Shown here piece after piece: positions 1-63,411 of a stretch of 64,000 nt of DNA. Below the pieces are notes generated by a model, which had not been told where the DNA came from, ran no database searches, and saw only the letters and a program-made list of their open reading frames with translations. The translations under genes and the position numbers were made by a program. This DNA comes from a virus (lineage: Duplodnaviria; Caudoviricetes), in IMG/VR virus record IMGVR_UViG_3300042288_001626; one strand, written 5' to 3'. How positions within the stretch are numbered: the stretch's first letter is position 1; every line of letters begins with the position of its first letter.

Positions 1-282
1 GCGGCTTCTGCAGGAGGCAGCATAGCCATAAACTCTTCGCTAGGTAACTTTACCTCTAGTGTAGGCACAAAGACATCGACACTAGGTACAAGCAGCTTAT
101 CTCTGTCCGACGGAGCAAACACAGGCAATTATAACGTTTCTGATTTAACTCTAAGGTCAGGAACCAAAACAATAACGCTTGACGCAGCAAGTCTTCCTAG
201 CAGCGCATCTTTTCAGCAAATTACAATATGTGTTAATGGTACAAACCGCACTGCCTGGGTATTAATGACAACTCCTAGCTAA
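1..282 (+). CDS. C-terminal end of a Ser/Thr/Gly-rich fibre-like protein (5'-truncated by the window)
   Basis: Frame 1 is open from base 1 to TAA at 280-282 (AASAGGSIAINSSLGNF...FQQITICVNGTNRTAWVLMTTPS*). The terminal 'ITICVNG' beta motif resembles phage fibre tips. Not in the ORF track. Confidence 0.55.
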   Translation, partial: AASAGGSIAINSSLGNFTSSVGTKTSTLGTSSLSLSDGANTGNYNVSDLTLRSGTKTITLDAASLPSSASFQQITICVNGTNRTAWVLMTTPS

Positions 283-289
283 TAATAAT

Positions 290-658
290 ATGTCTTGGTT
301 ATTTCCTGTAATACAAGGTACAGAGTGTAAATGTAATTGTCCGGCGCAACGCTGTGATGACAAATGTGCCACAAACTATGACCCGTCAGGTACTGCTCCT
401 CCATGCTCCGACAAGTCATGTTGCTCGTATCCAACTGATCCTGTTCGAGGTTGCACCGACCCTACAGCATCCAATTACAATGAATGTGCTACAATAGATG
501 ACAACTCATGCAAATCAGGATCGCGGTGTCCTGCTCCCGAGTGCTGTCCTGGAGAAACAGGCACCGGTTGCGGACAATGCTCGAACGGTCAACCGTGTTG
601 TATTTGTGGCTCCGGCCAAGCCCCTGTAGGTCCTAATTGCGCTTGCGTCTTCGTTTAA
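290..658 (+). CDS. Cysteine-rich small protein with a GCTDPxAxNYN...DDxSC repeat unit
   Basis: 21 Cys in 122 aa; contains GCTDPTASNYNECATIDDNSC; starts 7 nt after the upstream stop. Confidence 0.7.
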   Translation: MSWLFPVIQGTECKCNCPAQRCDDKCATNYDPSGTAPPCSDKSCCSYPTDPVRGCTDPTASNYNECATIDDNSCKSGSRCPAPECCPGETGTGCGQCSNGQPCCICGSGQAPVGPNCACVFV

Positions 659-676
659 AGTTAATAATATGTAGCA

Positions 677-1213
677 ATGGAAGAAGAATTGACCAAATAT
701 GAAAAGCTTGAGGTTGTAATGTACGCCATGACCTTGACTGAGCGTGCCGATAAACGTGACCTTTGGCTAAACAAAGGGGCGTTTGCTCGCGTACATAGTC
801 GAGGACCTCGAGCATTGTTTGACTACTGGAAGGCGCGACTGGATTCTGATCCTTTGGTAGAAGATTTGCTAAACACTACCTGGGCTAGATTTGTTGCTGA
901 GACAGAAAATCCACCCGCGACCGCCAAGAGCATTTCGGTACAGCCAAATAAAGTATCTGCGTTAACAAAAGCAAAAACACTACTACAGGCAGTAAAAAAT
1001 TTTACAGCAAGCGGGTTCGTTTTTGCTAGTGACGAAGTGTATAATCAAAGACTAGCTATTTGCAAATCTTGTGAGTTTTGGGACGCTGCTTCTTTTGTCA
1101 ATACCGGCAGCTGTACTTTGTGTGGGTGCTCTACAAAAGCTAAACTAAAGCTGCCTCTGGAAAAATGTCCTGCAGATAAATGGCTCCCTGTTAGTGTTCA
1201 GGAACATCAATAG
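677..1213 (+). CDS. Hypothetical protein with C-terminal Cys-rich DUF6171-like domain
   Basis: RLAICKSCEFW...CTLCGC...AKLKLPLEKCPADKW; TAATAT lies 6 nt before the ATG. Confidence 0.7.
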   Translation: MEEELTKYEKLEVVMYAMTLTERADKRDLWLNKGAFARVHSRGPRALFDYWKARLDSDPLVEDLLNTTWARFVAETENPPATAKSISVQPNKVSALTKAKTLLQAVKNFTASGFVFASDEVYNQRLAICKSCEFWDAASFVNTGSCTLCGCSTKAKLKLPLEKCPADKWLPVSVQEHQ

Positions 1214-1883
1214 TAGAGCTTAAAAATTCCTGATGGTCTATCCATACGGCTTTGCCTGTACTGTTATCTATTACTTTGCGATAGATTTTTCCGTCGCTTC
1301 CTTTGCGTGCGTTATTCACAAAGAAGTTTACAACTCCGATTGTAGTAGCCTCTACGGTTTGAATGGGATCAAGTAATCCAAACTGACTCTCATTCACTTC
1401 TCGAGAACTATCTGGAATAGCTTCACTAGATCCTATTCCTCCCATACCCATCTTGGTCACTTTGTGAGCAAGCATATACTGCTCCATAGGATTTACTCCC
1501 TCGATATTCTGAGCCAGCGAGTTCCCGACAAACACACTCTTCACCTGAGGACTAAAAAACCCTCCATGCAGCCACGAAAGATTCCTTTTTTGTCTTAGCT
1601 TGTTTTTAGCTTTTAGTTGAATCTTGCCTGCGTCATGTTCGATATGTTCTTTTATAAAATCCTCAGGACCTAAAAATTTCGAAAAGACTACGTTATCACG
1701 ATCATCAGGCTCCTCTTGTCTTCCGTACACTCTAAGAAGCTTTTGAGAAGCATTCAGCACAAGGAGAGGACTTAGAGAAGTCGTCGTCAGCCCGAGAGTC
1801 CTGCCCATGACGCTAGCATCGAGTTTCATGTTTCTAAAACTCTCTTTAAGTTTAGTTATTTTTTCTTGTTTACTTAGAGCCAT
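1191..1883 (-). CDS. rpoB: Stand-alone fragment of a multisubunit RNA polymerase beta subunit (RpoB domain 3 / fork-loop region)
   Basis: EEPDDRD..., NIEGVNPME...HKVTKMGMGGI...SREVNESQFGLLDPIQTVEATTIGV aligns with bacterial RpoB DQTNPLSE..HKRRLSALGPGG...[25 protein letters not shown]. Only 230 aa, with its own start and stop. Confidence 0.8.
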   Translation of the reverse strand: MALSKQEKITKLKESFRNMKLDASVMGRTLGLTTTSLSPLLVLNASQKLLRVYGRQEEPDDRDNVVFSKFLGPEDFIKEHIEHDAGKIQLKAKNKLRQKRNLSWLHGGFFSPQVKSVFVGNSLAQNIEGVNPMEQYMLAHKVTKMGMGGIGSSEAIPDSSREVNESQFGLLDPIQTVEATTIGVVNFFVNNARKGSDGKIYRKVIDNSTGKAVWIDHQEFLSSTIDVPEH

Positions 1884-1929
1884 ATTAGTTTATAGTAATG
1901 TATATCTGACAAAAAAACAACAGAAAGAG

Positions 1930-2118
1930 ATGAGATTTGAATTTGACTACGATACAGAAGCAGAGCAAATAACTATCGTCTATGATGGAGTTTTCACTTT
2001 GACTGTTGATTATGATGGGGAGAAATTAATTTTCAAGAATTTTGATAGAGTTGAAGACGACGAGATTGAGAAGATCTTGAAAACCCTTTGTCGTGCAGCC
2101 TTCGATGTGTTAGGTTAG
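1930..2118 (+). CDS. Small acidic hypothetical protein
   Basis: MRFEFDYDTEAEQ.... ATG at 1930 is preferred over the track start at 1807, which overlaps the divergent rpoB fragment. Confidence 0.6.
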   Translation: MRFEFDYDTEAEQITIVYDGVFTLTVDYDGEKLIFKNFDRVEDDEIEKILKTLCRAAFDVLG

Positions 2119-2124
2119 CCGACC

Positions 2125-2577
2125 ATGAATCCTACAGAAAGAACACGTCCCGACTGGGATCAGTACGGGCTTTTACTTGCTTATGCCGCAGCTCAAAGAT
2201 CTCCTGATCCTTATGTGCAAGTGGGAGCTGCAGCATTTAAGTCAGACCACTCAACAATAGGTACCGGATACAATGGAACTCCGGCTGGAGTTGAAATAGA
2301 CTGGTCAGACAGAGATAAGCGACGGCCTTTTGTGGATCATGCTGAATACAACTGTCTGAGATATACAAAACAGGGAGAGCCTCACTATCTTTACGTAACT
2401 CTATCTCCATGTACGGAGTGCTTAAAGCTGGCAGCAGCTCACGGAGTTAAAGAAATAATCTACAGTGAACTATATGGCAGAGATCAAGCAGCCTTGCATC
2501 TAGCCAGCAGTTTAAATATAAATGTAAGGCAACTAGACAGCTCATATGCGCACCTCTTTAAACCACACTCCGTTTGA
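2125..2577 (+). CDS. dCMP deaminase (ComEB/dCMP deaminase family)
   Basis: RSPDPYVQVGAA, GYNG, HAEYN and LSPCTEC zinc-binding motifs. Confidence 0.92.
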   Translation: MNPTERTRPDWDQYGLLLAYAAAQRSPDPYVQVGAAAFKSDHSTIGTGYNGTPAGVEIDWSDRDKRRPFVDHAEYNCLRYTKQGEPHYLYVTLSPCTECLKLAAAHGVKEIIYSELYGRDQAALHLASSLNINVRQLDSSYAHLFKPHSV

Positions 2578-3232
2578 CATATCTTCTAAAAGTTTTGTGT
2601 CAGCTCGATCAGACAAAACAAATATTGTTTTGCATGGAAGCCTGTCTAGAACGAAATATTCCTATACCTCTGAACAGAATAGTGAAAACTATCTGATGAA
2701 GACCTGGGGTCTTCTCGGAGACAAGGTAGCAGGGCATTATGTCGTAGGCAGGTCAGGAGAAATATTTAGCTGCTTCGATGAGGACTACTGGTCGAATCAT
2801 CTAGGACCTGACAAGCGGGTCTCTTCCTTGAACAAAAGCAGTATCAGTATCTATCTGTGTAATGAGCTTTACTTGGAGAAGGAGAATAGTCGGTATTATG
2901 CTTTTGGTTATGTACATCCTTCTAACCTATATAAAGGACCAGTTTTTGAACATAAATTCAAAGGATACAACTACTGGGCAGATTACAGCAAAGAGCAAGT
3001 GGCGAGCTTGGTTTTATTGCTTAAAGATATATGCTCTCGCTGGGATCTCTCGACCACCATGCTTGAAAATACTACGAGGCTGATCCCAAAAGCTTCTGCT
3101 CGTGCAACTATAGTTTCTGGAAGTAATGCATCTAGCTCTTCCTACAGTTTGCCTTTTCCTTCTTGGGCGCTCAACCATCTAAGTCAGTCAGGTGTCTCTA
3201 TGTTGAGTTGCATTGAAGAAGGCAAGAAGTAA
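2546..3232 (+). CDS. Amidase_2-like (N-acetylmuramoyl-L-alanine amidase fold) protein with possibly degenerate catalytic residues
   Basis: IVLHGS...GHYVVGRSGEI...YWSNHLG...NKSSISIYLCN...YSKEQVASLVLLLKDIC pattern. Confidence 0.65.
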   Translation: MRTSLNHTPFDISSKSFVSARSDKTNIVLHGSLSRTKYSYTSEQNSENYLMKTWGLLGDKVAGHYVVGRSGEIFSCFDEDYWSNHLGPDKRVSSLNKSSISIYLCNELYLEKENSRYYAFGYVHPSNLYKGPVFEHKFKGYNYWADYSKEQVASLVLLLKDICSRWDLSTTMLENTTRLIPKASARATIVSGSNASSSSYSLPFPSWALNHLSQSGVSMLSCIEEGKK

Positions 3233-3314
3233 ATTTTTGCGGTAAAAAATTAATTTTCTGTACCCAAACCTCATATTTGGGTACTATAAAACCTCACATC
3301 AATAACAAACAAAA

Positions 3315-5165
3315 ATGAGCAAGGAATTCCTAAGCAAACTCGTACACTACCGCACATACGCAAAATATCTTCCTGAAGAGCTTCGCAGAGAGTCTAAAGA
3401 GGAGACTATAAATAGGAATATGCAGATGCATATCCGGAAGTTTCCTGAGCATGCAGAAGCTATTGAAAAAGCATACGAGCAGGTTTTTGCCGGTAGGGTA
3501 GTTCCCAGCATGCGCAGCTTCCAGTTCGCTGGCGAAGCAATTGAGCGTCGCAATAATCGAATGTTTAATTGCAGTTTCCTAAACATCACAAAGTTTAGAG
3601 ATTTTGCAGACCTATTCTACATGAGCATGAGCGGTGTAGGTGTCGGCTTCAGCGTCAAAAAGAAACACATCTCTTCTCTAGGAGCTATTCCCGAAGGCGC
3701 TGTGGTCCCTCCCTATGTTGTGGCTGACTCGGCAGAGGGTTGGTGCGATAGCTTGCTGGAACTTTTCCGCAACCCTGATCTGCAGTTCGACTATACTCCC
3801 ATTCGTCCTATGGGTGCTCCTTTGAGTACAGGAGGGACAGCTAGTGGTCCGAAAGCTCTAATCAAGATGCATGCGAATGTCCGTGCAATTTTGAGGAAGG
3901 CTGTCGGACGGCAACTCACCCCTTTCGAATGTCATCGCGTTGCCTGTTTGATTGCCGATTGCGTTGTTGTCGGAGGCGTTCGTAGAGGAGCACTGATTAG
4001 TCTGTTCGATGTGGATGATGAAGAACTTCTGAACTGCAAAGCAAACAACTGGTGGGAAAAATATCCTGAGCTTGCTCGTGCAAATAACTCCGCTGTTCTA
4101 CGCAAAGACGATCCAGACTTTAGAGAAAAAGCAGGCAGGGTAATTGATGCTTGTTTTGCTGGCGGTCAGGCAGAGCCTGGCCTGAGTCTCACCAACGATG
4201 ATGAGATGGGATTCAATCCTTGTCACGAGATTGCACTCAAGAGTATGGGTGTCTGCAACCTTACAGAAATTAATGCCGCTCAATGCTTCAGCAAAGAAGA
4301 TTGGCTGAAGGCTGTTGTTAGTGCGACTATTCTAGGAACACTACAAGCAACCTATACAGACTTTAAATATGTGCAGCCTGAGTGGAAAAAGAACGCAGAC
4401 GAAGAAGCGTTGCTAGGGGTGAGCATCACAGGACAAGCTGAAGCTCAAGCCATTTTGACTCCAGAAAACCTTAAAGAAGGTGCAGAGGTAGCAGTTCAGG
4501 TAAACAAGCTCTGGGCGCAAAAGCTGGGAATCAACCCTGCTCGCCGAATAACTACCACAAAACCTTCAGGAACCAGCAGCAGCTGGCTAGGAACAACTGC
4601 AGGTGTACATGCAGGACATGAGATTCGTTATGTGCGTCGTGTACGTATGGATAAGTTTAGCGCGCTGGCTAAAGCTTTAGCCAAGAAATTCCCTGCTTTT
4701 GTTGCAGAAGATCCATTCAACAGCAACGACATGATCATGCAGGTTCCTATCAAACTGTATGACACCACACTCCTCAGAAGCCAGGAAACCGCTGTGCAGT
4801 GTTTGGAGCGCGTGAAAGTATTGTATGACAGCTGGATTGTTCCAGGGCACATTGTTGGAGACAATACCCACAACATCAGTCTAACCATAAACTACCACGA
4901 GCATGAAAAAGAAGCGATCAAGCGCTGGATGCTAGATAACAGAGATTCATATTATGGTATCAGCCTCATTCCATATGACGGCGGAGACTATAAATACCTG
5001 CCCTACAGCCAGCCTCCACATCCTGAAATTTTTGAAATTTTAGAGAAGGCTTTTTCTCTCGTCACCGACGAGTTCAAATTTGAAGATATTCGTGAAAGAA
5101 AAGATAACACTGACTTCAAAGGAGAGATTGCTTGTGCAGGAGGAGCCTGTAGCTTAGAGCTGTAG
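3315..5165 (+). CDS. nrdJ: Class II (adenosylcobalamin-dependent) ribonucleotide reductase, monomeric RTPR-like
   Basis: PSMRSFQFAG, NCSF, GVGVGF, VVGGVRRGALISL, FNPCHEI, CNLTEIN, TTKPSGT and C-terminal CAGGAC. Confidence 0.95.
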   Translation: MSKEFLSKLVHYRTYAKYLPEELRRESKEETINRNMQMHIRKFPEHAEAIEKAYEQVFAGRVVPSMRSFQFAGEAIERRNNRMFNCSFLNITKFRDFADLFYMSMSGVGVGFSVKKKHISSLGAIPEGAVVPPYVVADSAEGWCDSLLELFRNPDLQFDYTPIRPMGAPLSTGGTASGPKALIKMHANVRAILRKAVGRQLTPFECHRVACLIADCVVVGGVRRGALISLFDVDDEELLNCKANNWWEKYPELARANNSAVLRKDDPDFREKAGRVIDACFAGGQAEPGLSLTNDDEMGFNPCHEIALKSMGVCNLTEINAAQCFSKEDWLKAVVSATILGTLQATYTDFKYVQPEWKKNADEEALLGVSITGQAEAQAILTPENLKEGAEVAVQVNKLWAQKLGINPARRITTTKPSGTSSSWLGTTAGVHAGHEIRYVRRVRMDKFSALAKALAKKFPAFVAEDPFNSNDMIMQVPIKLYDTTLLRSQETAVQCLERVKVLYDSWIVPGHIVGDNTHNISLTINYHEHEKEAIKRWMLDNRDSYYGISLIPYDGGDYKYLPYSQPPHPEIFEILEKAFSLVTDEFKFEDIRERKDNTDFKGEIACAGGACSLEL

Positions 5166-5179
5166 AGTAGCTGACAGCT

Positions 5180-5223
5180 AAAAAAAACACCCACAACGAA
5201 TTACTTTTGTTGTGGGTGTTTTT
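5180..5223. terminator. Bidirectional intrinsic terminator between nrdJ and the convergent gene
   Basis: AAAAAACACCCACAAC-loop-GTTGTGGGTGTTTTT perfect stem with A and T tracts. Confidence 0.85.
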
Positions 5224-5242
5224 GTGTTCACGCTAATTCAAA

Positions 5243-5728
5243 TCAGTCTGTTCCAAGCATAGCTATCAAAGCATCTGTAATGCCTTCCCAGAAGGTAATA
5301 TGATCCTTTAATTTTCTGCTGACCAAGTTGAAGTGGTACCTGTCCACCTTTGAATATTCGAGGTCAGGGAACTCGCTGTCGTAGTTTTTCAAACAAAGCA
5401 CCGTAGGTTCGGCATCCTCCATTTCTCCAGGTTTGAATACTGTGGTGAACACTGCTCCGGAATGGAGAGGTAATGTAGTCATTATTTTTTCAACATATCT
5501 TTGGATAGTTTCAAATGCCTGACTGTTCACAGCTACCTGTAAAAAACTCATAGGGTGGCACTCTCCACAAGGACATGCCCAGAAGTTACTAGGCATCACT
5601 GCCACACCATTCACATCGTTAATCATCTCCATGTACGGTTTAGCGTTTTTGCATACCGTTTCGGACTCTACAGCCGCGACGAACATGTCTATCAAGTCTA
5701 GTTTTTTGTCTTCGGTTAGTGGTATCAT
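5243..5728 (-). CDS. Hypothetical protein (contains CPCGECHP)
   Basis: 161-aa ORF with an upstream conserved promoter motif and a downstream terminator. Confidence 0.7.
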   Translation of the reverse strand: MIPLTEDKKLDLIDMFVAAVESETVCKNAKPYMEMINDVNGVAVMPSNFWACPCGECHPMSFLQVAVNSQAFETIQRYVEKIMTTLPLHSGAVFTTVFKPGEMEDAEPTVLCLKNYDSEFPDLEYSKVDRYHFNLVSRKLKDHITFWEGITDALIAMLGTD

Positions 5729-5750
5729 AAAATAAAATCGGGTGATCTCA

Positions 5751-5770
5751 TCAATATATTATACCACAAA
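5751..5770 (-). promoter_or_regulatory. Conserved 20-bp promoter motif, copy 1 (TTTGTGG-TATAAT-ATATTGA)
   Basis: Extended -10 (TGnTATAAT); 19/20 identical to 10439-10458 and 17/20 to 61853-61872. Confidence 0.75.
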
Positions 5771-5810
5771 TGTTTGACTTTTGCTGTGAGGAGTCACAAG
5801 ATTGTGAGCT

Positions 5811-6350
5811 ATGAAGATCGCTACAAAATCAGGAGACAAAGGAAAAACAGGAAGATTGTTCGGTTCGAGGGTAAGCAAGACAGACCCGGCCATCGCTGCT
5901 GTGGGAGACATTGACGAGCTGAATGCTGCTATGGGTATGCTGAAGTATGAGGCTCATCAATACCCCAAGTACGCAGCTTCTTTAAAAGAAATTCAACACA
6001 GGCTTACTCTATTGATGGGAGAGATCGCAGCTGAAGCCGAGATGCGTGATGAATATGTTTTGAAATATGATTCGATAAAGACAGAAGATCTAGACTCTTT
6101 AGATGCTGAAGTTTCTTTACTTGAAAACATGTCTGAATTAGATCAGCAAGGCTGGGTGCTGTATGGAGAGTCTAAAAGAGGTTCGCTTGCAGACTTCGCC
6201 TCTAAGGTTTGCCGTCGCGCAGAAAGATCTGTTTTGCGTATGGAAGAAGCTGAAGGCAGCGTTGTCAGACCTACACTAAAAAAATACCTCAATAGGCTGA
6301 GTGATTTTCTCCATCTACTAGCTAGGTATTTTGATTTTGAAGAAAACTAG
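5811..6350 (+). CDS. pduO: ATP:cob(I)alamin adenosyltransferase, PduO type
   Basis: IATKSGDKGKT, RVSK, AVGDIDELNAAMG, VCRRAERS and YLNRLSDFLHLLARY. Confidence 0.93.
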   Translation: MKIATKSGDKGKTGRLFGSRVSKTDPAIAAVGDIDELNAAMGMLKYEAHQYPKYAASLKEIQHRLTLLMGEIAAEAEMRDEYVLKYDSIKTEDLDSLDAEVSLLENMSELDQQGWVLYGESKRGSLADFASKVCRRAERSVLRMEEAEGSVVRPTLKKYLNRLSDFLHLLARYFDFEEN

Positions 6351-6365
6351 AAACTGAAAATTAAT

Positions 6366-6749
6366 ATGAGTACAACCCAATTAAAACTTAAAAAGAATCA
6401 CAAGAAGGCGTTAGAGGAGTCTTTGAAGGAATTTAACCTGACTGTTGATGAAGCTCTGTCCTGGCTGAGCGAAAGCCAACAGGCGCTGCAGCCAAAAAAG
6501 CTTTGCGGTTCTGCGTCGTGCGAAAACCCTTATAGATGTAATATTGAAGGATGTGAGTTTTCCGAAGCCTTGAACTGTGTTAATCCTCCCAGCAACGTCA
6601 CATTCATTCCAGGAGACTCGATAAACCCTGCCTCTGTTTTTGTAGGCACGACCAGAATGACTGGGCTTGTGGAAACTAACGTAACTTACGTTGGAGCAGA
6701 TTCTCCTGTTTTGCGATTGACTATAAGGGGAGCAAAAATATCTAATTAA
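6366..6749 (+). CDS. Hypothetical protein (Cys cluster CGSASCENPYRCNIEGC)
   Basis: 127-aa ORF followed by a terminator. Confidence 0.65.
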   Translation: MSTTQLKLKKNHKKALEESLKEFNLTVDEALSWLSESQQALQPKKLCGSASCENPYRCNIEGCEFSEALNCVNPPSNVTFIPGDSINPASVFVGTTRMTGLVETNVTYVGADSPVLRLTIRGAKISN

Positions 6750-6774
6750 CCGATTGCGAACGAGACCATGTATG

Positions 6775-6809
6775 ATGAGCCTGGATAGTTACCTGTCCAG
6801 GCTCATTTT
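6775..6809 (+). terminator. Intrinsic terminator
   Basis: ATGAGCCTGGA-loop-TCCAGGCTCAT-TTT. Confidence 0.75.
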
Positions 6810-6817
6810 ATTATGTG

Positions 6818-6846
6818 TTGAGCTTGCGGATTAAATGTACTACAAT
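6818..6846 (+). promoter_or_regulatory. Sigma70-like promoter, probably leaderless
   Basis: TTGAGC-17 nt-TACAAT, then 7 nt to ATG 6854. Confidence 0.65.
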
Positions 6847-6853
6847 TATTGGT

Positions 6854-8068
6854 ATGGCATTTATTATACTTGTAGCTCTTTCTGCATTTTTTGTGGCCGG
6901 TTGTGCTGCCTTTTTTAGTATAAAAGGACTTGTTGTATTATTTTCTGGAAGTTCACTGGCTATAGGCATAATGGCCAGCTCTCTGGAGATAGGAAAGCTT
7001 GTTGCTGCTAGCTTTCTTCATAGCTACTGGAAAGATATTAAATTTTTACTTAAAGTTTATCTCTGTAGTGCTGTGTTAGTTTTAATGGGCGTTACTAGCT
7101 TGGGTATTTTTGGTTTTTTAACAAATGCCTATCAAACACACGCCACCACCGTAAGTTCTTTTGAAACCAAAATAAAAACTCTAGAGAACGAGAAGCTCTC
7201 GCTGGTTGAGAGTATCAGCAACAACTCAGAAAGAGTTAGAGTGCTGTCAGATATACGTACAACACAAGAACAGCGCGTAAAAGATGCTGGTAACTACAAA
7301 GCCCCCAGAGATCAGGCTTATAAGGCGATAGCCGACGCTAATGAGGAAGCACAAAAGAAAGAGGCTTTGATTTCCCAATCTAGAGAAAGAAGCATATCTG
7401 TAGACAGGGAGATAGAAGATTTAAAAATAGCTATGAATACAACTACAGACGTAGGGTCATTCAAATTTATAGCTAATGCACTCAACACTGACGTAGATAC
7501 CTCTGTTCAATACTTTATATTTGCCCTGATTACTGTTTTTGACCCTTTGGCAGTCACTCTAATTCTAGCTTTAAACAAGCTTATTGAGCTTAGGAGCGCA
7601 CGGAAAGAAGCAGAGATGAAAGAGCTGGAAAACCTACTCAGGACCGAAGTGGTGCCTGAGTACAGCGAGATTTCATCACCATCTACATCTCCAGCCCCTA
7701 TATTTGTTCCGCCCTCTTCTGCTCCTGTTATTGCTCCCGACATCGCTCCTGCTTCTGTTGCGCACGAACCTGCAGTGACTGAACTTGTCGAAGAAATAAT
7801 TCCTCCTGCCGTTCTGGTCGTCCCGCCTGAGCCTGAGGTTGTGTCCTACACTCCTGTCATAGTGCATGCCGCTCCAGAAGACCCTCTGTGGGCTCTTGAA
7901 GACTCTACGCCTGTTCCGGCTTCAGTGTCAGAGACTTTACGGATTGACGTTCCTACAGATATGGTATCAGGTCTTCCTGTAGCTCATGTAGACTCTGAAG
8001 ACCCACATACTGATACTAAGCGTAGAACAATACAATCAGGCGACAACAACTCTATAATCAGAGGCTAA
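6854..8068 (+). CDS. Multi-pass membrane protein with coiled coil and Pro-rich tail (conserved phage hypothetical)
   Basis: AFFSIKGL...SSLEIGKLVAASFL...FGFLTNAY, coiled coil, VFDPLAVTLIL. ATG 6854 is preferred over GTG 6815. Confidence 0.8.
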   Translation: MAFIILVALSAFFVAGCAAFFSIKGLVVLFSGSSLAIGIMASSLEIGKLVAASFLHSYWKDIKFLLKVYLCSAVLVLMGVTSLGIFGFLTNAYQTHATTVSSFETKIKTLENEKLSLVESISNNSERVRVLSDIRTTQEQRVKDAGNYKAPRDQAYKAIADANEEAQKKEALISQSRERSISVDREIEDLKIAMNTTTDVGSFKFIANALNTDVDTSVQYFIFALITVFDPLAVTLILALNKLIELRSARKEAEMKELENLLRTEVVPEYSEISSPSTSPAPIFVPPSSAPVIAPDIAPASVAHEPAVTELVEEIIPPAVLVVPPEPEVVSYTPVIVHAAPEDPLWALEDSTPVPASVSETLRIDVPTDMVSGLPVAHVDSEDPHTDTKRRTIQSGDNNSIIRG

Positions 8069-8820
8069 TTTTTTTTAGACTCCATTACTGCAGGATTCTC
8101 TTCAAAAGTTTTCACTATGAATCTGCAGAGTTCGCTACGAACAATGTCCGAAGAATCAAAAGCTACGCTATATATGCCGAACTGCTGAGCTTCGACAGTA
8201 TTGAACATGTGAGCGCACTTTTCAAAGCCTCCTTGTTTGTTCTTAGGTAGGTCAGACTGCTTGGGATCTGCACACAAAATCATTTTTGTAAACTTCCCTA
8301 TACGAGTCATCAGAGTCTGAATCTCGTTAATTGTTAGATCTTGGCACTCGTCGATTATAATTAATTTAGCTGTCCAGCTAGCCCCTCTAACAAAATTAAT
8401 GGGCTGGTAGATAAACCTATTTTCAGCTTTTAGTTTTTTAACATCTCCGGCACACAGCAACTCTTCCAGTTTATCTTCGAAAGGTCCCATATAAGGCTCA
8501 TACTTTCCGTTAATGTCTCCAGGAAGATAGCCGAGCTTTGAGTCTGCAGACTCTACAGCAGCCCGCACAAAGACAAGGTCGGACACCTTCTTACTGTTTA
8601 ACATCTCTAGTCCGATTCTCATTGCGCAGGTGGTCTTGCTGCTTCCTGCAGGACCAGACAAGAAGATAATTCTGCTGTCTCTAGCTGATCCTAGCTCAAT
8701 TAAAGCTTTTTGCTTTTCGGTCCATGGAAGCTCGCGAATTTTAAGCTCGAAAGAAATTTTTTCTCTCTGGTACACCTTAGGGCTAGTGTCTGGTTTTGCG
8801 GGCGTTTTTGGTTTTGTCAT
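8065..8820 (-). CDS. phoH: PhoH-family ATPase
   Basis: IFLSGPAGSSKT, LGYLPG, FVRGASW, IIIDECQDLT, RIG and CADPKQSDL. Confidence 0.93.
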   Translation of the reverse strand: MTKPKTPAKPDTSPKVYQREKISFELKIRELPWTEKQKALIELGSARDSRIIFLSGPAGSSKTTCAMRIGLEMLNSKKVSDLVFVRAAVESADSKLGYLPGDINGKYEPYMGPFEDKLEELLCAGDVKKLKAENRFIYQPINFVRGASWTAKLIIIDECQDLTINEIQTLMTRIGKFTKMILCADPKQSDLPKNKQGGFEKCAHMFNTVEAQQFGIYSVAFDSSDIVRSELCRFIVKTFEENPAVMESKKN

Positions 8821-8821
8821 A

Positions 8822-9268
8822 TTATTTTACGTATATGCCTTTGGTTGGATTGTCCGGATAAATCTGTTTGTATTTTTCACTCAGACTTACCGCGTGCAGG
8901 ACATTTAATCTTAGCCCAGCCAGCTTAAACGCTGCTTTTATCTTATGGGCTCTGCGAAAATTACTTCCGTTAATCAGATACTTATTGTGAAACGGGATAT
9001 CAAACAGGGAGAACAGCTCTATCCACACCTTTCGCCTAAGGTATCCTTCGTTAATTACATCAGTGCAAAACAAGAGGTCAAAATCTGCTCCTGTTGTTTG
9101 ATGTATATGTATTTGAAGCTCAAAAATGATTTGCCTAAATTCTCCTAAGAACTCTTTAAAGTCCAGCTTTAACAGAGCCTGTAACGCTTCTATAACTTCT
9201 CCAAGTAGTGAAGTTAGCGGGTACTTTCTACCACCTAACAACTCTTCGCAAACCTGTTTAACTTTCAT
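8822..9268 (-). CDS. Hypothetical helical protein
   Basis: 148-aa ORF, translationally coupled on both sides. Confidence 0.65.
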   Translation of the reverse strand: MKVKQVCEELLGGRKYPLTSLLGEVIEALQALLKLDFKEFLGEFRQIIFELQIHIHQTTGADFDLLFCTDVINEGYLRRKVWIELFSLFDIPFHNKYLINGSNFRRAHKIKAAFKLAGLRLNVLHAVSLSEKYKQIYPDNPTKGIYVK

Positions 9269-9525
9269 TTATATTCTATATTTGAAGGAATCAGCTTTCT
9301 TTGCGTGTGTATTTTAAATCCGGAAGGAATATGCGTTATGCCTACATATTTTTCATTTAACTTTGAGTCTATCTTAAACTGCTTGGGGCTTTTGTTAAGA
9401 ATGTCTTGAAGTATTTTATTTTTTGTTGTGTAGTCGCCTGCGTCAGACCGCTCCTTGGCCTCAATAAGCTTTCTAAGCTCTAAAGACTTGGCTAGCTTAA
9501 CTATATTGGCAGGCAGCAATCGCAT
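9265..9525 (-). CDS. Small basic protein with an N-terminal VKLA motif
   Basis: LIEAKERSDAGDY..KNKIL...YVGITHIPSGFKIH; TG-C-TATTAT lies 6 nt before the ATG. Confidence 0.7.
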   Translation of the reverse strand: MRLLPANIVKLAKSLELRKLIEAKERSDAGDYTTKNKILQDILNKSPKQFKIDSKLNEKYVGITHIPSGFKIHTQRKLIPSNIEYK

Positions 9526-9569
9526 ACTTCTATAATAGCAGGTTCTAGCCTAAAAGCCACCTAATAGCT

Positions 9570-9601
9570 AAAAAAAGGGCGGAGAATATCTCCACCCTTT
9601 T
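9570..9601 (-). terminator. Intrinsic terminator
   Basis: Minus strand GGGTGGAGA-TAT-TCTCCGCCC-T7. Confidence 0.8.
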
Positions 9602-9632
9602 CTTGTATGCCTAACTCTTGTTTAGCCTGGCT

Positions 9633-9836
9633 TCAGGGACGTTTTTTACCTCTCTTTCTAATGCGTCCTAGGGTGTCCCATACCCCAGTCCTTTTAAGCT
9701 GAGGAAACAACCAAGGCCGCTCCATGATTATGGGCTGCCAATAATCCTCGTCTCTGAGCATGCTGCTTCGGGCATTCGCAGATTCTGCGATAGTCCTCGC
9801 GCTTCCGTGCGGGTTAGGCATGTATGGAGAGCACAT
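9633..9836 (-). CDS. Small hypothetical protein
   Basis: Starts 1 nt after the upstream stop and is followed by a terminator. Confidence 0.5.
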   Translation of the reverse strand: MCSPYMPNPHGSARTIAESANARSSMLRDEDYWQPIIMERPWLFPQLKRTGVWDTLGRIRKRGKKRP

Positions 9837-9837
9837 A

Positions 9838-10392
9838 TCATCTGTCCGCGAGTATCACTTTGTCGGCCCAGAACACATAGCTCTGCTTGAGTCTTACAGC
9901 AAACTCGTCGACCGAGATCGCCATCGGTGAACCTCCAGGCAGCAAGAAGTAATTCTTGATGAGAGTGTCAGGATGGATTGGCTGCGGACCAGTGCCCTGC
10001 TTCGTGATTATAGTCACAAGCTCGAAGGTTGAATCTTCGTGTGTCGCATCTCTCCCCAGAGCAGTTCTTCCGTACATCACGAGCTCCGCAGAGTCAAACG
10101 GATCAGGAGTTAGAGAAGCGTCAGCTCGCAGGCGCTTCGACGGAAGTTCATCTACTCCGGGTCTGGCTTCGAACGTAAACGTTCCTGTATCTCCAGGCTT
10201 TAAAGTAACAAGTACCGGATTCACCCATTCTGTGGGAATGGTTATCAGGTACGTGTCAGGCTTGTCTCCTTCTGTAAATGCTCTGGTTTTAAAAGCATTT
10301 TCTGCGGCTTCGACCAAAGTCGCGGCATCGACATTGACGCGGCTGAGCTGGCTTTCAGTGAAGTACTTATTCAGGTTAATTTTAACGTTCAT
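9838..10392 (-). CDS. Hypothetical protein
   Basis: 184-aa ORF downstream of conserved promoter copy 2. Confidence 0.7.
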   Translation of the reverse strand: MNVKINLNKYFTESQLSRVNVDAATLVEAAENAFKTRAFTEGDKPDTYLITIPTEWVNPVLVTLKPGDTGTFTFEARPGVDELPSKRLRADASLTPDPFDSAELVMYGRTALGRDATHEDSTFELVTIITKQGTGPQPIHPDTLIKNYFLLPGGSPMAISVDEFAVRLKQSYVFWADKVILADR

Positions 10393-10438
10393 GTTTTGTT
10401 GGGTGGTTAAAAGGCTACCAGGACAACATGTCTAGGTA

Positions 10439-10458
10439 TCAATATATTATACCATAAA
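10439..10458 (-). promoter_or_regulatory. Conserved 20-bp promoter motif, copy 2 (TTTATGG-TATAAT-ATATTGA)
   Basis: Near-identical to 5751-5770. Confidence 0.75.
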
Positions 10459-10486
10459 TTTGCCCTATTATTTAATCAGGCAATAC

Positions 10487-11488
10487 TTAGATTTCGTAGT
10501 CTTCTTCGATTTTGTCGAAGGTTAAAATAGGTTTAATGGTGAAGTTCAGTTTTGAGTCGTAGTCTTTGAATCCGACATTATTGCTAGCATAAGACGTACG
10601 TCCTATGAGATGTACATACAAGTGCTCGCAAGAATCGTAAGCATTTGCAAAGCTCTTGCGAAAAACCCTGCCGTCTAAATACGCAAAATACTGCTCTTCA
10701 AAATTTTTAAAAGTTGTTTGAGCTACTCCATTTGGTAGCTTTTCAGGGAATTCAAACCTGGCCTGTAGCTTATCAAAATATAATTTATTTTCAGCTCCTG
10801 GGTGATAAGTGTCTGCCACTATTCCCGAGTAAGCAGTATAAAAATACTTGAACTTATCAGGATAAAGTCCGGCATACATTTTAAGTGTACATTGAAACCA
10901 TCCCTCATCTAGTAGGTGTTGATCTCTAGTCTTCGGGATACTTTCCTTGGCTTCTTTTAGTCTAGACGGCATGTAATTTGGGTGATTTGGCCAGTTAGAC
11001 ACATCCAATAAAATATTTTTAGCTTTGTCCCCTTTCTTTAAAAAACAAAGATGACCTCTGTTGCCTATAAAGTCGTATTGTTCAAAGTCTTGAAGAAATT
11101 TGGAAGCATCTCCAAAAATAAGATCGCAGTCTACAAACCCCCAATAAGGGTAGCTCTGCAATTCTTCAGCAAACACGTCACCATAAAGAAATTTGTAATC
11201 GCACAGTTTATACAGCGCCGGTCTTCCGTTGGACATCTTGCCTTCAGGAAAGGGTGTAGCCACATCTACCGAAAACCAATCTTTGATAGCTGCAGTTATT
11301 CTCTTACCTACCTCATCAACTGAATAGATTTTGTTATAAACGTTCGAGGGTAGATCGGGCACAGGATGATCTGTAACCAGCAACAAATCAAAAAAGTCTT
11401 TGTTTCTGCCTACACTATGTAGAAACAAATTAAAGTAGGCATGAAACGGTCCGTAATAGGGAAGAACCAAACAAATTTTATTTTTCAT
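10487..11488 (-). CDS. Glycosyltransferase-like protein (DUF6625-like)
   Basis: KICLVLPYYG..YFNLFLHS...LLVTD, YKLCDYK..YG, YWGFVDCDLIFGD (DxD) and LLDE. The start at 11488 overlaps the upstream gene end. Confidence 0.75.
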   Translation of the reverse strand: MKNKICLVLPYYGPFHAYFNLFLHSVGRNKDFFDLLLVTDHPVPDLPSNVYNKIYSVDEVGKRITAAIKDWFSVDVATPFPEGKMSNGRPALYKLCDYKFLYGDVFAEELQSYPYWGFVDCDLIFGDASKFLQDFEQYDFIGNRGHLCFLKKGDKAKNILLDVSNWPNHPNYMPSRLKEAKESIPKTRDQHLLDEGWFQCTLKMYAGLYPDKFKYFYTAYSGIVADTYHPGAENKLYFDKLQARFEFPEKLPNGVAQTTFKNFEEQYFAYLDGRVFRKSFANAYDSCEHLYVHLIGRTSYASNNVGFKDYDSKLNFTIKPILTFDKIEEDYEI

Positions 11489-12386
11489 ACATTCTCTTAT
11501 AGTTAAACGCGGTAAAGTCTTTTGCAAATATCTCGTAAAACAAGCTCTCTGTGTCCGGATCAAACATAGTGAAATGATCTGGTAGTGTGTTGGTTTCTGT
11601 AGCCAATTTCACAATTTCGTCTCCGTGTGTGGTTGCAGAAATGCTGCCTCTCAGATCTTTTTTAGGGGCGGTGCTGTTCCTGTTCGCATGTACTTTTAAA
11701 TTTTGTGCAGTCAGCTCTTTTATCCGGGCAAGATCCCCTTCGCTTAAAAATCTTCCGTAAAACTCTGCTACACCGTCAGGAAGACGTTCAATATCCATTA
11801 CATATATATCTTTTAAAATCCTGTCGAGCTCCCAGCCAGGGTAGGGATAAAAGCACTGAAGTTCGTGGTGCTCTTCGAGATTGAAGATTCCGTTAGCTTT
11901 AAAGAACTTTAAAAACTCCAGATACCTTCTAAACGAAGTATCAAAGTCGTCAGGCACATCACCTAGGTTGATCGGCAGCTTCGCCTTTCTGATCAATGAT
12001 TTTAATGACGGAGACAATCTATGCAGCTCGTCATTGTCTGAAGCAGTGGCTACCAGCTCTGCATCTTTTGTAATACAGTACAATTTAAATAAATTTACAA
12101 ACTTTACAGAAAGAGTTGTTTGGCTTCCCTGGACATGTAAGAACTTATCATAGTAGGCGCTGAGTACTCGCTTATAAGGATTCCTAACCAAAATAAACTT
12201 GTTGCTTGTTGCATAGACCTGAGGCTTGTCGTTGCCGGTAACAAATAGCGAGCTGAAATTAAGCCCGTCCCAAGAAGAGTACTCATCTTCGTGAAAGTCT
12301 TTGTATATTTTACGCATGAGGCTGCATCCTGCCTTGGGCACGTAACACATCACGTAGTCGTGTTTTTTATTGTAGATAATATTCAT
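11478..12386 (-). CDS. Sulfotransferase family 2 (carbohydrate sulfotransferase-like)
   Basis: 5'-PSB-like YVPKAGCSLMR, 3'-PB-like FILVRNPYKRVLSAYYDK, H..Q, and a terminal FYEIFAKDFTAFNY. Confidence 0.85.
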   Translation of the reverse strand: MNIIYNKKHDYVMCYVPKAGCSLMRKIYKDFHEDEYSSWDGLNFSSLFVTGNDKPQVYATSNKFILVRNPYKRVLSAYYDKFLHVQGSQTTLSVKFVNLFKLYCITKDAELVATASDNDELHRLSPSLKSLIRKAKLPINLGDVPDDFDTSFRRYLEFLKFFKANGIFNLEEHHELQCFYPYPGWELDRILKDIYVMDIERLPDGVAEFYGRFLSEGDLARIKELTAQNLKVHANRNSTAPKKDLRGSISATTHGDEIVKLATETNTLPDHFTMFDPDTESLFYEIFAKDFTAFNYKRMYEK

Positions 12387-13186
12387 AAAGTTTTTAGCAG
12401 GCTTTGAAATTTACGATAATAGTGAATTATTGATTCCTCCGCGTGTTTACTATGACATACCAGCGGCTTTAATCCAGGGATTCGTTCAGCAAAAAGAGAG
12501 GCTCCAAGCTCAATCAGTTTTTCAGCACGATCGCTCTGCATTCCGTGATAATGTATAATGCTTGCATCATCATTTATACCCCAGTAAGTTTTCCAATTCA
12601 ATAGATCGCTAAGCTTTTTAACTGAGGTCTTATAAAAGCTATTCAGAGCTCCCTGGTCTCTTCCTGCGAATTTAAACTGTTTATCTGTAATGCTTGTGAT
12701 GAGCGCGTCGTATGTTTCGAGCATGTACTCACTATTGCACCACAGCACTCCTGCATTAAAATGTTTGCTTACATCACAATTTTTAGCGTTCTCTCCTGCA
12801 GCAGCAAAAGTCTCTGGCAAATAGCTGTTGAGTAACTCGTACGGGTCACTTTGGAAAAGAACATCCACATCCGTATACAGATAATGCGATGCTTTAACCT
12901 CGAGCTTTTTAAGTACAACAGGAACATCTAACCTAAGATATGTGGAACAGGCTGTGCGCACTTCGTTAGGGTCAGACACATACTCGTGGATTTCGTCATG
13001 TATAGCGCACTCTCCTCTTATTACAGTCACCTCATAGCTCTCCAAGAAACGAACAAAAGCCTCATCATTGCCGTTATACAGACAATAGCGCTTAAAGTTT
13101 TTACAAATTTCGGCAGTAGCTACAGCCACTTTTGCTTGCTCTTGATATAGATCATTAAGACAGATGAACCAGGGTATTGAGCTCAT
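12383..13186 (-). CDS. GT8-like glycosyltransferase (paralog A)
   Basis: YLRLDVP, YLYTDVDVLF (DxD), FNAGVL, DQGALN, LNWK and HYHG. Confidence 0.85.
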   Translation of the reverse strand: MSSIPWFICLNDLYQEQAKVAVATAEICKNFKRYCLYNGNDEAFVRFLESYEVTVIRGECAIHDEIHEYVSDPNEVRTACSTYLRLDVPVVLKKLEVKASHYLYTDVDVLFQSDPYELLNSYLPETFAAAGENAKNCDVSKHFNAGVLWCNSEYMLETYDALITSITDKQFKFAGRDQGALNSFYKTSVKKLSDLLNWKTYWGINDDASIIHYHGMQSDRAEKLIELGASLFAERIPGLKPLVCHSKHAEESIIHYYRKFQSLLKTL

Positions 13187-13188
13187 AA

Positions 13189-14001
13189 TTACAAAGAAGC
13201 TAGCTGTTGTTTATATGTGTTGTAGTAATAGTTAAGCGCTTCGCCTGTGTCTGGCTTGTAGTTTACAATATGCCTAATCATAGGCCATTTTTGTAAAAAC
13301 TTTTCACGGTCCAGGGTAACAAAGTCTTCCAGACGGTCTATTTTAAGTCCGTGAAAATGGACAAGATAAGCTTCTTTGTTAATTCCCCAGTAAATCTTCC
13401 AATTAAGAAGATCTGAAAATTTGCAGACTGCGTCTTTGTAAAAAATATTTAAAGCTCCTTGATCATGAGCTTGAAAGTTGTACTTACCTAGTTTTACAAA
13501 CTGTATAAGATCTTCGTAACTGTTGTACATGTATCGTGTGTTACACAGCATAACTCCTGCATTAAACAAGTTCTTAACATTGCCTTGCTCTGTAAATTCT
13601 CCTGTAGCTGCTATAGTGGAGGGTAGATTATCTACAAGTTCGGTATATGGGTCTTTCTGAAAAATTACGTCAGTATCTGTATAGAAGTAGTGCGAGTAGT
13701 CTAGTCCGCGCTCATGCATTACTTTTGGAATATCCATACGCATATACGTACCCTGCATCAATAGTTTTTCACCAGGGATTCGATTTGTCTTGTTTATATC
13801 GTCAGTAAATGTCGATTTATGTTTAATGACTGTGACTCCTGTACCTGTAAGGTAATCTACGAATGCTTGGTCTTCTCCAGCATACAGACAGTAACGGTCA
13901 AAATTTTCGCACACCTCCGACGATTTGGCCGCTATTTTAGCTAGATCGTTATATATGTTTTTTCTGTCGTTAAGACAGATGAACCAGGGAATTTTTTCCA
14001 T
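13189..14001 (-). CDS. GT8-like glycosyltransferase (paralog B)
   Basis: YMRMDIP, YFYTDTDVIF, FNAGVM, DQGALN, LNWK and HFHG; collinear with the adjacent paralog. Confidence 0.85.
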   Translation of the reverse strand: MEKIPWFICLNDRKNIYNDLAKIAAKSSEVCENFDRYCLYAGEDQAFVDYLTGTGVTVIKHKSTFTDDINKTNRIPGEKLLMQGTYMRMDIPKVMHERGLDYSHYFYTDTDVIFQKDPYTELVDNLPSTIAATGEFTEQGNVKNLFNAGVMLCNTRYMYNSYEDLIQFVKLGKYNFQAHDQGALNIFYKDAVCKFSDLLNWKIYWGINKEAYLVHFHGLKIDRLEDFVTLDREKFLQKWPMIRHIVNYKPDTGEALNYYYNTYKQQLASL

Positions 14002-14002
14002 A

Positions 14003-14797
14003 TTATAAATTTTGTCTTATTTGCTCTGCGTATTGTTTTGCGGTATCGTCATAGACTTCATTAATGTCGTAGGCATCAAACCAATCAATATCCGCACGTT
14101 CTTTAAAGTTACTCGAAGTTTTGTCGCTAGCTCTGTACTTTTCTAGATAATCCTCGTAAGCTCTTGTAAAATATTGATTAACTCTTATCTTACTCCCATT
14201 AACAGCTTCTAGTCTACCTGGAGTTTCTCCTTTAATTAATTCTCCGTTCTCGTCAGCAGTTCCTTTTAAAGTATTAAATACATGAGGATTTAGATAACCT
14301 ATCACCTCGCTAGGTTTTACAATGCTTTTGACGTGCAAGTTCACGCACCAGTCGTCTTTGCCTCTGTTTAAAAAATTCTCAACACAAAGACCTGAGACTG
14401 GTCGCAGAATGTGTCCAGAAGATCCGTACGTTCTCCAGTTTGCGCCTACTCCAGAAAACTCCTCGTAGTCTTCAAGAAATTTCCTCAAATCATCCACAGC
14501 TTGAGGTATAAAAAACTCGTCAGGATCACAAAATATCATCCACTCTGTTTTGCTCTTAAAGTATTCAACTGCGAAGTTATAAGCGGAAGCAATTTTGTCT
14601 GTTTTATTTAGTTTAAAGTCTATGAAGTTTATATCGTCCGAAAAGGGTAAATCATACACTTCGTCTTCTGTTCCGTCCGTGGATCCGTTATCAAAGATAT
14701 AGAACTGCTCGACTCCCATGCTCTTGTAGTAAGCCAGCCACTCTTTAATATAGTGCTTTTCATTTTTAACTATGGTTGTGGCAGAAAGGTAGTTCAT
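14003..14797 (-). CDS. GT2-like/GT92 glycosyltransferase
   Basis: IVKNEKHYIKEWLAYY...FYIFDNGSTD, WMIFCDPDEF, WRTYGSSG and KSIV. Confidence 0.85.
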   Translation of the reverse strand: MNYLSATTIVKNEKHYIKEWLAYYKSMGVEQFYIFDNGSTDGTEDEVYDLPFSDDINFIDFKLNKTDKIASAYNFAVEYFKSKTEWMIFCDPDEFFIPQAVDDLRKFLEDYEEFSGVGANWRTYGSSGHILRPVSGLCVENFLNRGKDDWCVNLHVKSIVKPSEVIGYLNPHVFNTLKGTADENGELIKGETPGRLEAVNGSKIRVNQYFTRAYEDYLEKYRASDKTSSNFKERADIDWFDAYDINEVYDDTAKQYAEQIRQNL

Positions 14798-14800
14798 GGC

Positions 14801-15862
14801 TTAAAAATGATGCTTACAAAAAAGTGTTCCGTCGCAGTATTGTTCCCATCCAGACGCTGACCATTCTTCTCCAATGCTACCGTCCCAGCCAGTCATATAA
14901 AAATTACCGTGAGGTCTTTTAAACGTCAGCCTATACGGAAGCACCTCTTGTAACGCTTTACAGTTGTACAAAGAGAATCCTCCTCCTTGCATCTCTACCC
15001 GTATCAGTCTAGGCTGCATGTCTTCAATTTTGGGAGTCTTACCCCATATGAAAGGTTGCATAGATAGGCATGGTGTCGAAGGGTCCAGTTTCTGCCTATA
15101 GTACCCTCCTACGCAAGCCACTTTCTTTTTCTGTTTCTCTAAATTTTTTATCTGCTCGTAGAGTCTTACAAATCCGTCCTCTGGAGGCTCCATATCGTCC
15201 TCTATTTTTAGTATATAGTCGAAGTGCTCGGAGGGTTCTTGCAGCAGTATCGAATAATTCACAGCCACATGAGCATGCTTGTGCATTTCTAGATAGTGGT
15301 CTTCAGGTTTAACCTCGTAAGGGTCTCCCAAATCTAAAATGTGTATGTCTCTATATTTTAAAGACAACTCACTCTTTAGCTGAACTTGTAGATTTTTTAC
15401 GTTTGTGTTTCCGCTATTATCTCCCAGAATCACATCAACTTCGACATCGTCAGGAAATTGCACATTTTTAATAAATTCTAACCAGCAGTCTCTTGAGGCT
15501 TTTGGAGAAAACATAGTAATTATGGCTACACTAGTTTTCTCTGTACTTTTAAAGTTAAAAAGTCTGGGCTTCGAAGGCACGTCAAAGGCTAAAGAATTTA
15601 TCGTGTAATTCGCGGCTACCGCCTTTTTAAAAAGCTCTTGAATCGATCCGAACTGCTTTTTGAAATGTCTTACTCCGTTGACGTTGATGATGTATATTCC
15701 AGGATAAGGCTCAGTCCAGATAGCTCTGCGGTCTGTGGGTAACTCCACTTCTGGAGCTGCTCCATCTCGCCACACGCTTGAGTCCACAAGCTTAATATGT
15801 TCCGTAGTTGTGTCATCTATAGCTGTGTGCAGAGCACTAAGCAATTTTTCTTCGGTTATCAT
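14801..15862 (-). CDS. GT-A fold glycosyltransferase-like protein with an N-terminal extension
   Basis: ILGDNSG, YILKIEDD, VGGYY, GGGFSLY and GWD. Confidence 0.65.
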   Translation of the reverse strand: MITEEKLLSALHTAIDDTTTEHIKLVDSSVWRDGAAPEVELPTDRRAIWTEPYPGIYIINVNGVRHFKKQFGSIQELFKKAVAANYTINSLAFDVPSKPRLFNFKSTEKTSVAIITMFSPKASRDCWLEFIKNVQFPDDVEVDVILGDNSGNTNVKNLQVQLKSELSLKYRDIHILDLGDPYEVKPEDHYLEMHKHAHVAVNYSILLQEPSEHFDYILKIEDDMEPPEDGFVRLYEQIKNLEKQKKKVACVGGYYRQKLDPSTPCLSMQPFIWGKTPKIEDMQPRLIRVEMQGGGFSLYNCKALQEVLPYRLTFKRPHGNFYMTGWDGSIGEEWSASGWEQYCDGTLFCKHHF

Positions 15863-17346: not shown

Positions 17347-17347
17347 A

Positions 17348-17785
17348 CTAAGGTCGCAGAGCTACATTATTTGCTATTAGTCTTGCAGACCTTTCTCCGT
17401 ACACTGAACAAGAAAAAGCTGGAGGTGTGGCTGCGGTAGACGTTAGGGTCAAGGTAACATCTTTTTCTAGATATATGCTTTTAGGCGTTACCCAACTCGA
17501 AGAGTCTAGATTCGCTGCGCAACTAGAGAGTAATGTAACTTTTGATGAACTGGTCGGTAAACTCGTTGCGTTTGTTTTACGGCTAAGATTTTTATACCAG
17601 TTAGCCAGATTAGTCCACTGTGTGTCGCTGCCTACGGCATAGAAGTATAGTGGATTGGTTCTAGAGAACTTGTCTAGAACTCCAGAAGCTCGTCTGATAT
17701 CTGTAAATTTAGTCAATAGCGGCATAACAACAAAAATAAATATGAGAGCTGCATAAAGCATAAAAAAATACCGATACACCTTCAT
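17348..17785 (-). CDS. Membrane-anchored small protein with a W-x-x-x-x-N-W beta module
   Basis: N-terminal hydrophobic helix, then YFY...QWTNLANW...LPTSSSKVTL; GGAG upstream. Confidence 0.6.
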   Translation of the reverse strand: MKVYRYFFMLYAALIFIFVVMPLLTKFTDIRRASGVLDKFSRTNPLYFYAVGSDTQWTNLANWYKNLSRKTNATSLPTSSSKVTLLSSCAANLDSSSWVTPKSIYLEKDVTLTLTSTAATPPAFSCSVYGERSARLIANNVALRP

Positions 17786-17885
17786 GCATCAGTATCTCCG
17801 AAGTTAAAAATACTTTGTTTTTTTGCTCATAATCTCTGTTAATATATAACATATTACAGAGAATCGAGCAATTTAATTTAACCTG

Positions 17886-19410: not shown

Positions 19411-19413
19411 AAA

Positions 19414-63400: not shown

Positions 63401-63411
63401 CTGCGAAAAAG

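Follow-up and report, generated by a model that had tools for sequence, protein, structure and literature searches.

The 230-amino-acid gene at positions 1191..1883 (minus strand) of the window, by which we mean the whole 64-kb stretch of phage DNA analysed here, very probably codes for beta-N2, a small and obligatory subunit of the one bacterial-type multisubunit RNA polymerase (RNAP) of the phage, in a form of the enzyme that is distributed over four genes. Judged from its sequence, the open reading frame (ORF) corresponds to the stretch of RpoB that begins at the DDxD motif and ends with the fork domain, and to no more of RpoB. This reading is built on what we establish here: the homology of the ORF, its boundaries, the purifying selection that acts on it, its seamless complementarity with other pieces in relatives, and the presence of one RNAP set per genome.

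An earlier note on this DNA described the ORF as the RpoB region running from a DDRD motif to GSDGKIY and nothing further, with a clean start and stop. This holds: Pfam, phmmer and a family profile all identify RpoB, and the gene runs from an ATG to a TAA. Pfam detects RNA_pol_Rpb2_3 (PF04565, the fork domain) at amino acids 127-187, with 24.7 bits for a cut-off of 21, and finds the catalytic beta DPBB (Rpb2 domain 6) absent from the ORF. Among solved structures, phmmer aligns amino acids ~109-209 to residues 497-597 of E. coli beta, with a best E of 8.6e-7, and matches bacterial and plastid RpoB chains and nothing else; the family profile reaches solved RpoB at E 3.6e-40, and bacterial and plastid beta appear in the PDB profile search with values from 1e-23 to 1e-40. 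Structurally, the ORF takes in the closing helices of the lobe, the connector that bears DDxD, the protrusion's second half and the fork domain.

The motifs of the ORF can be placed one by one. The DDRD motif, amino acids 60-63 (1695..1706, minus strand), is the equivalent of DDIDH in bacterial beta, and its residues D60, R62 and D63 reach 90% conservation or more in the RNAP family alignment, in which G146 and G148 of GMGGIG, the fork-loop-2 equivalent of GPGGL (amino acids 146-151; 1431..1448, minus strand), are invariant. At amino acids 175-179 (1347..1361, minus strand) we see QTVEA where bacterial beta has ETPEG, as had been reported; since the family consensus is xTPES, the lineage of the window is the divergent one at this place. 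GSDGKIY occupies amino acids 195-201. In the HMMER alignment, the pocket residues E128, L138, K141 and T143 correspond to D516, H526, R529 and S531 of E. coli, and the family consensus agrees in K and T at the third and fourth of these positions, while the first two hold no conserved residue: insensitivity of the polymerase to rifampicin is plausible.

An rpoB-like gene that was once longer and had decayed to a pseudogene, or had been truncated by a frameshift or an assembly error, could look as the ORF does, a mere RpoB fragment with the remainder missing from the 64 kb. However, there are 21 related loci in IMG/VR, with 69-85% identity to the ORF, and all 20 full-length relatives have exactly 230 codons, the same start and stop and no indels, with a shared beginning M-x-x-[ST]-K-x-E-K and a shared end ...[IV]PE[HYSN]-stop. 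Since these boundaries are identical in 20 independent metagenomic contigs, the assembly frameshift that the earlier note had considered as a cause of the truncation did not occur; moreover, the partner pieces in relatives lie kilobases away on the other strand, a layout that a frameshift cannot produce. The median pairwise dN/dS is 0.06, with a maximum of 0.09 among pairs with unsaturated dS (dS is saturated in most pairs, and dN there is 0.1-0.24), which speaks against relaxed selection, and inteins are maintained in the stand-alone gene of relatives. The conservation of the 230 codons, the dN/dS and the maintained inteins thus lead us to reject a frameshift artefact or a decaying pseudogene, a reading whose probability we put close to nil.

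The closest described proteins provide a numbering for what follows. In tblastn against phage records, the ORF matches amino acids 231-469 of gp206 of Salmonella phage Arash (28% identity, E 5e-21), the homology spanning the full length of the ORF, and amino acids 230-462 of a 514-amino-acid ORF of Vibrio phages D69, D148 and D181 (0263 in D181; records for Arash and the Vibrio phages, OQ632216.1 and OZ196140.1). By its Pfam domains Rpb2_3, Rpb2_6, Rpb1_1 and Rpb1_2, gp206 (1,525 amino acids) is beta fused to beta'-N. It is labelled "subunit beta" in the Arash paper, whose available text does not mention the fusion, and by spectral count it is the most abundant in the Arash virion, with gp216 (beta') in fifth place (PMC10585845). 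In Vibrio phage D181, the gp206 homolog is in two ORFs, and a further ORF with Rpb1_4 and Rpb1_5 is beta'-C. The D181 homolog (locus L002, 7314-12828) is interrupted around residue 520 by about 950 nucleotides with a homing endonuclease gene and two very small ORFs; this interruption may be a self-splicing intron or a true fission.

Five relatives of the window, 93-100% complete, 182-204 kb long and one of them with terminal repeats, were searched with gp206. In each of the five, gp206 is covered by three ORFs, corresponding to its amino acids ~23-224, ~231-470 and ~480-1522. The first, beta-N1 (~220 amino acids), lies on the opposite strand, 3.5-7.2 kb past the end of beta-N2, and it is found on that strand in 14 of the 14 loci that reach far enough. 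The third, beta-C/beta'-N (~1,000 amino acids), lies about 15 kb from the beta-N2 homolog: Rpb2_6, which is the catalytic beta DPBB missing from the 230-amino-acid ORF, Rpb1_1 and Rpb1_2 are all on this one separate ORF, of 1,008 amino acids. About 3 kb beyond it comes a beta'-C ORF of ~618 amino acids.

The pieces thus complement each other in every near-complete relative, where they are scattered over both strands within ~18 kb and abut the ORF without gap or overlap; the idea of the earlier note that an RNAP had been split into dispersed genes is borne out, and the complementary fragments on which it depended exist. Because each of the five relatives has a single Rpb2_6 match per genome, each has one RNAP set. 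No homolog of the alpha subunit was found in the relatives, an ORF with sigma-70 region 2 exceeds the cut-off in one of them only, and the genes between the pieces in a relative have almost no Pfam or PHROGs matches.

The window itself holds no further RNAP piece in its 64 kb, again as the earlier note had it: tblastn with Arash gp206, with both D181 halves, and with pieces 1 and 3 and the beta'-C of an 84%-identical relative has the 230-amino-acid ORF as sole match, all other matches having E>1. The upstream side of the window is collinear with the relatives (62-amino-acid divergent gene, dCMP deaminase, PhoH), and consequently, by synteny with relatives 69-85% identical, the partner genes would be expected just left of base 1.

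These genomes also bear on another suggestion, that the ORF is a non-catalytic paralog, acting as a decoy or modulator that binds the host RNAP or the phage enzyme. Such a role would suit a small stand-alone gene that is transcribed as a separate unit, on the strand opposite to its neighbours, and in which some conserved bacterial residues are altered (QTVEA for ETPEG, and L138 against H526 of E. coli). However, the complete relatives have a single RNAP set, in which nothing else covers amino acids 231-470 of gp206, so that without beta-N2 the enzyme would lack a fork domain; the ends of the ORF abut the neighbouring pieces exactly, and in most family members the same segment sits inside a full-length chain. 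We therefore regard a paralog or modulator as improbable and retain the ORF as a subunit of the polymerase.

Aligning the ORF with unsplit homologs maps the two break points, and its ends are flush with them. In gp206 numbering, break A lies between ~224 and 230, and break B near 471-475; the D181 interruption, at ~517/525, is away from both. In the multiple alignment, a short variable linker separates the end of beta-N1 from the start of the ORF, and nothing is missing or duplicated. The AlphaFold model of P0008, an unsplit N-half homolog of 493 amino acids (pLDDT 85.4, pTM 0.81), puts break A in a loop (224-229) that joins helix 209-223 to helix 230-243, in a region that is helical and confidently modelled. 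This model superposes on bacterial and plastid beta (~10-512 of Thermus, 20-626 of E. coli) with Z scores of 20-22, rmsd of 4.4-5.5 and ~435 aligned residues: pieces 1 and 2 therefore make up the complete protrusion/lobe/fork half of beta, and the protrusion, lobe and fork folds are present in the two pieces taken together. By position, break A would fall within the lobe, approximately 60 residues before the DDxD connector, and break B follows directly on the fork domain, near position 620 of E. coli.

The ORF modelled alone reaches a pLDDT of 69.7, with the fork region below 50. This low confidence fits a chain that needs partners; a shallow alignment could also explain it. A Foldseek search with the lone model returns weak matches, all of them RpoB and none at E<=0.001.

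Both breaks can be followed through a large family. Among 1.84 billion representative proteins, there are 1,064 protein matches at E<=1e-3 and 825 clusters at E<=1e-10. Most members are unsplit, and have the region at amino acids ~230-470 of proteins of 1,450-2,900 amino acids: it is embedded at this place in long chains in 106 of the 150 best matches, while 15 of the 150 start at break A and run on, 13 finish at break B, and 16 are stand-alone or fragments. In a FastTree tree of 145 of these 150 matches, the window and P0001, P0002, P0003, P0005 and P0006 form one doubly split clade with support 100, within which identity goes down to 43%. Outside that clade the split states require several more changes, as many as 14 at break A and 7 at break B, counts that are lower if only well-supported branches count and that may be inflated by contig-truncated gene calls. 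Breaks A and B look like permissive positions that were used more than once. The split point, which the earlier note had called unusual, is so with respect to phiKZ or archaea; within this polymerase family it recurs.

The family is also pervaded by inteins. Its chains of 2,300-2,900 amino acids are beta/beta'-N fusions with LAGLIDADG inteins, and such inteins are found in Rpb2_6 and in beta'-N of long members. The stand-alone homolog cluster representatives P0001, P0003 and P0005 contain a complete intein (Cys ... Gly-Asn | Ser) right after the fork-loop GG[IL]x motif, a site that corresponds to amino acids 151/152 of the window protein (after G151, nucleotides ~1428-1433); the intein of P0001, a protein with 82% identity to that of the window, has 342 amino acids. 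Inteins persist in expressed, essential sites.

In a gene family so rich in inteins and homing endonucleases, the pieces might be rejoined into one beta chain, through split inteins (protein trans-splicing) or RNA trans-splicing: metagenomes are known to contain "fractured genes" whose parts split inteins join. However, the ORF is flush with unsplit homologs over residues 2-229, so that neither end could accommodate an intein half, its ATG and stop are conserved in relatives, and Rfam finds no group I or II intron in the window. The ends of the ORF carry no intein halves, and the only inteins seen are whole ones, after G151 in relatives. Having found neither intein halves nor intron RNA families, we reject trans-splicing as very improbable.

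The preferred reading, that of a polymerase in four separate polypeptides, would have the following history. The ancestral enzyme would have been a beta + beta'-N fusion plus beta'-C, as in Arash gp206/gp216, and the lineage of the window would have made two further cuts inside the N-terminal half of beta, leaving beta-N1 (~220 amino acids), beta-N2 (230), beta-C/beta'-N (~1,000) and beta'-C (~618), which presumably assemble non-covalently. The beta-C/beta'-N chain would carry both catalytic barrels. The helices of beta-N2 would complete the lobe begun by beta-N1, and beta-N2 would also give the DDxD connector, the protrusion's second half and the fork domain, including fork loop 2 and the rifampicin-pocket region, which line the hybrid and the i+1 site. 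The enzyme may be packaged in the virion as in Arash, the one phage for which packaging is known, at 28% identity. As for the fissions, they may have come about via the inteins and homing endonucleases that pervade the gene family: mobile elements are a likely cause because inteins occur in many members and a homing endonuclease lies between the D181 halves. We looked for a homing endonuclease adjoining the ORF, as a scar of fission, and there is none: the neighbours are the DUF6171 protein, the 62-amino-acid ORF, a dCMP deaminase and an amidase.

The immediate surroundings of the ORF suggest how it may be transcribed. As had been noted before, it is antisense to its neighbours, the flanking genes at 677-1213 and ~1930-2118 being both on the plus strand. 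The first, which encodes a Cys-rich DUF6171 protein, is convergent and overlaps the last 23 nucleotides of the RNAP piece; it is found beside that piece in some relatives only (L013, L015). The second, of 62 amino acids, is divergent and separated from the ORF by an intergenic region of 46 nucleotides (1884..1929, minus strand), with no Shine-Dalgarno sequence and with a conserved AT-rich box TAnTATA 5-8 nucleotides before the ATG of the ORF. This box is kept in 21 loci, and a sigma-70 consensus scan leaves it unflagged. In the window, the box precedes three ORF starts by 5-8 nucleotides, against 0.3 in shuffles (1884-1897, 9526-9540 and 45373-45388, all on the minus strand). Because the box is so close to the ATG, in a region of 46 nucleotides without a Shine-Dalgarno sequence, the intergenic region weakly suggests a candidate promoter of a near-leaderless transcript. 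With just three ORF starts preceded by the box and the sigma-70 scan silent, TAnTATA as a class of phage promoters is only suggested.

A bolder reading, which we consider conceivable but rather unlikely, is that beta-N2 is recurrently separated and independently expressed, with several fissions at two fixed, permissive sites through inteins and homing endonucleases, in a class of polymerases that would be large, almost undescribed and minimal, without alpha or omega and with both catalytic barrels on one chain. If this were true, the fork piece would have its own promoter, and control of assembly through beta-N2 would therefore be possible: the phage could time or limit the assembly of its polymerase, for example for packaging.

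Other features of the window deserve mention in their own right. Positions 1-20000 have no megablast match in phage records. A ribonucleotide reductase (3315-5165, plus strand; phrog_367, E 4e-114) has a cobalamin adenosyltransferase nearby (5811-6350, plus strand; PF01923, E 3e-40), and the phage may supply the adenosylcobalamin cofactor to a B12-dependent reductase. Three paralogous genes for collagen-like tail fibres are found on the minus strand, at 28119-30578, 41578-45372 and 45406-47619; the stretch at 28-30 kb has a GC content of up to 0.56, compared to ~0.43 elsewhere, and strong skews. A 960-amino-acid ORF (57350-60232, minus strand) contains two separate P-loop NTPase-like stretches, around amino acids ~270-310 and ~450-500, and has no clear family. 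A tRNA-Arg(TCT), at 63411-63483 on the minus strand, is the sole RNA family match in the window.

How does this polymerase compare with known ones? The relatives of the window share with Arash and the Vibrio phages the domain order, the beta-C/beta'-N fusion and a separate beta'-C, and in D181 the gene is interrupted too, with a homing endonuclease between the halves. However, Arash has beta and beta'-N on one chain, D181 has one cut at about residue 520 of gp206, and the relatives of the window are cut at ~225 and ~472, their pieces being dispersed over ~18 kb on both strands. The portal and the other neighbour genes of the polymerase in Arash and D181 have no detectable homolog around the pieces of the relatives.

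The enzyme is not of the phiKZ-like kind that the earlier note had cited for its split subunits: it belongs to the Arash type, in which beta'-C accompanies a fusion of beta and beta'-N. Phages of the phiKZ/AR9 type have two RNAP sets, with the beta and beta' barrels on separate chains (PMC7598289, PMC7824862). Their polymerases are likewise phage-encoded, bacterial-type, made of several beta and beta' fragments and devoid of alpha and omega; a virion-packaged form exists, and it has been proposed that mobile introns and homing endonucleases brought about their splitting. On the other hand, the relatives of the window have one RNAP set instead of a virion/non-virion pair, both DPBB barrels are fused on one chain in these relatives and in Arash gp206, and the split sites are different, the extra cuts here being inside the N-terminal half of beta. 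The PDB profile search, carried to E=10, lists no phiKZ/AR9 chain, the presence of those chains in the copy of the PDB being unconfirmed.

Fissions of archaeal RpoB (B''/B') and of plastid rpoB after the fork region still give an active enzyme. Break B is in the same general region, after Rpb2 domain 3 and at about position 620 of E. coli, the archaeal position being the one given in the literature. However, those splits are a single cut between adjacent genes, whereas here a second cut is inside the lobe and the genes are dispersed. Finally, the mReC, or multisubunit-RNAP-encoding Caudovirales, are uncultured tailed phages whose beta and beta' were found with cellular HMMs (PMC7481178). Their beta and beta' are close to cellular ones and their genome sizes are similar, a likeness drawn from published descriptions; neither the beta/beta'-N fusion nor the present fissions are described for them in the available text of that paper (PMC7481178).

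Split phage polymerases are in themselves nothing new. The four-gene layout is conserved, and the literature searched yielded no description of it.

Archaea, cyanobacteria, plastids and phiKZ-like phages all offer examples of split multisubunit RNAPs; what the present family adds is a beta chain cut within its lobe and again right behind the fork, its genes lying dispersed on both strands under selection that is still strong. Since in close relatives the enzyme is divided among four scattered genes, the 230-amino-acid gene is very probably part of a working polymerase and no relic, and annotators should avoid labelling small RpoB-like ORFs of phage contigs as pseudogenes or host-derived fragments. 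The predictions made here are testable, since the family abounds in metagenomes and includes phages in culture, namely Arash and the Vibrio phages. Within this one family, intact chains coexist with chains split once or twice, which makes it a natural experiment on which chain breaks a two-barrel RNAP tolerates and on the fragmentation of essential genes by mobile elements.
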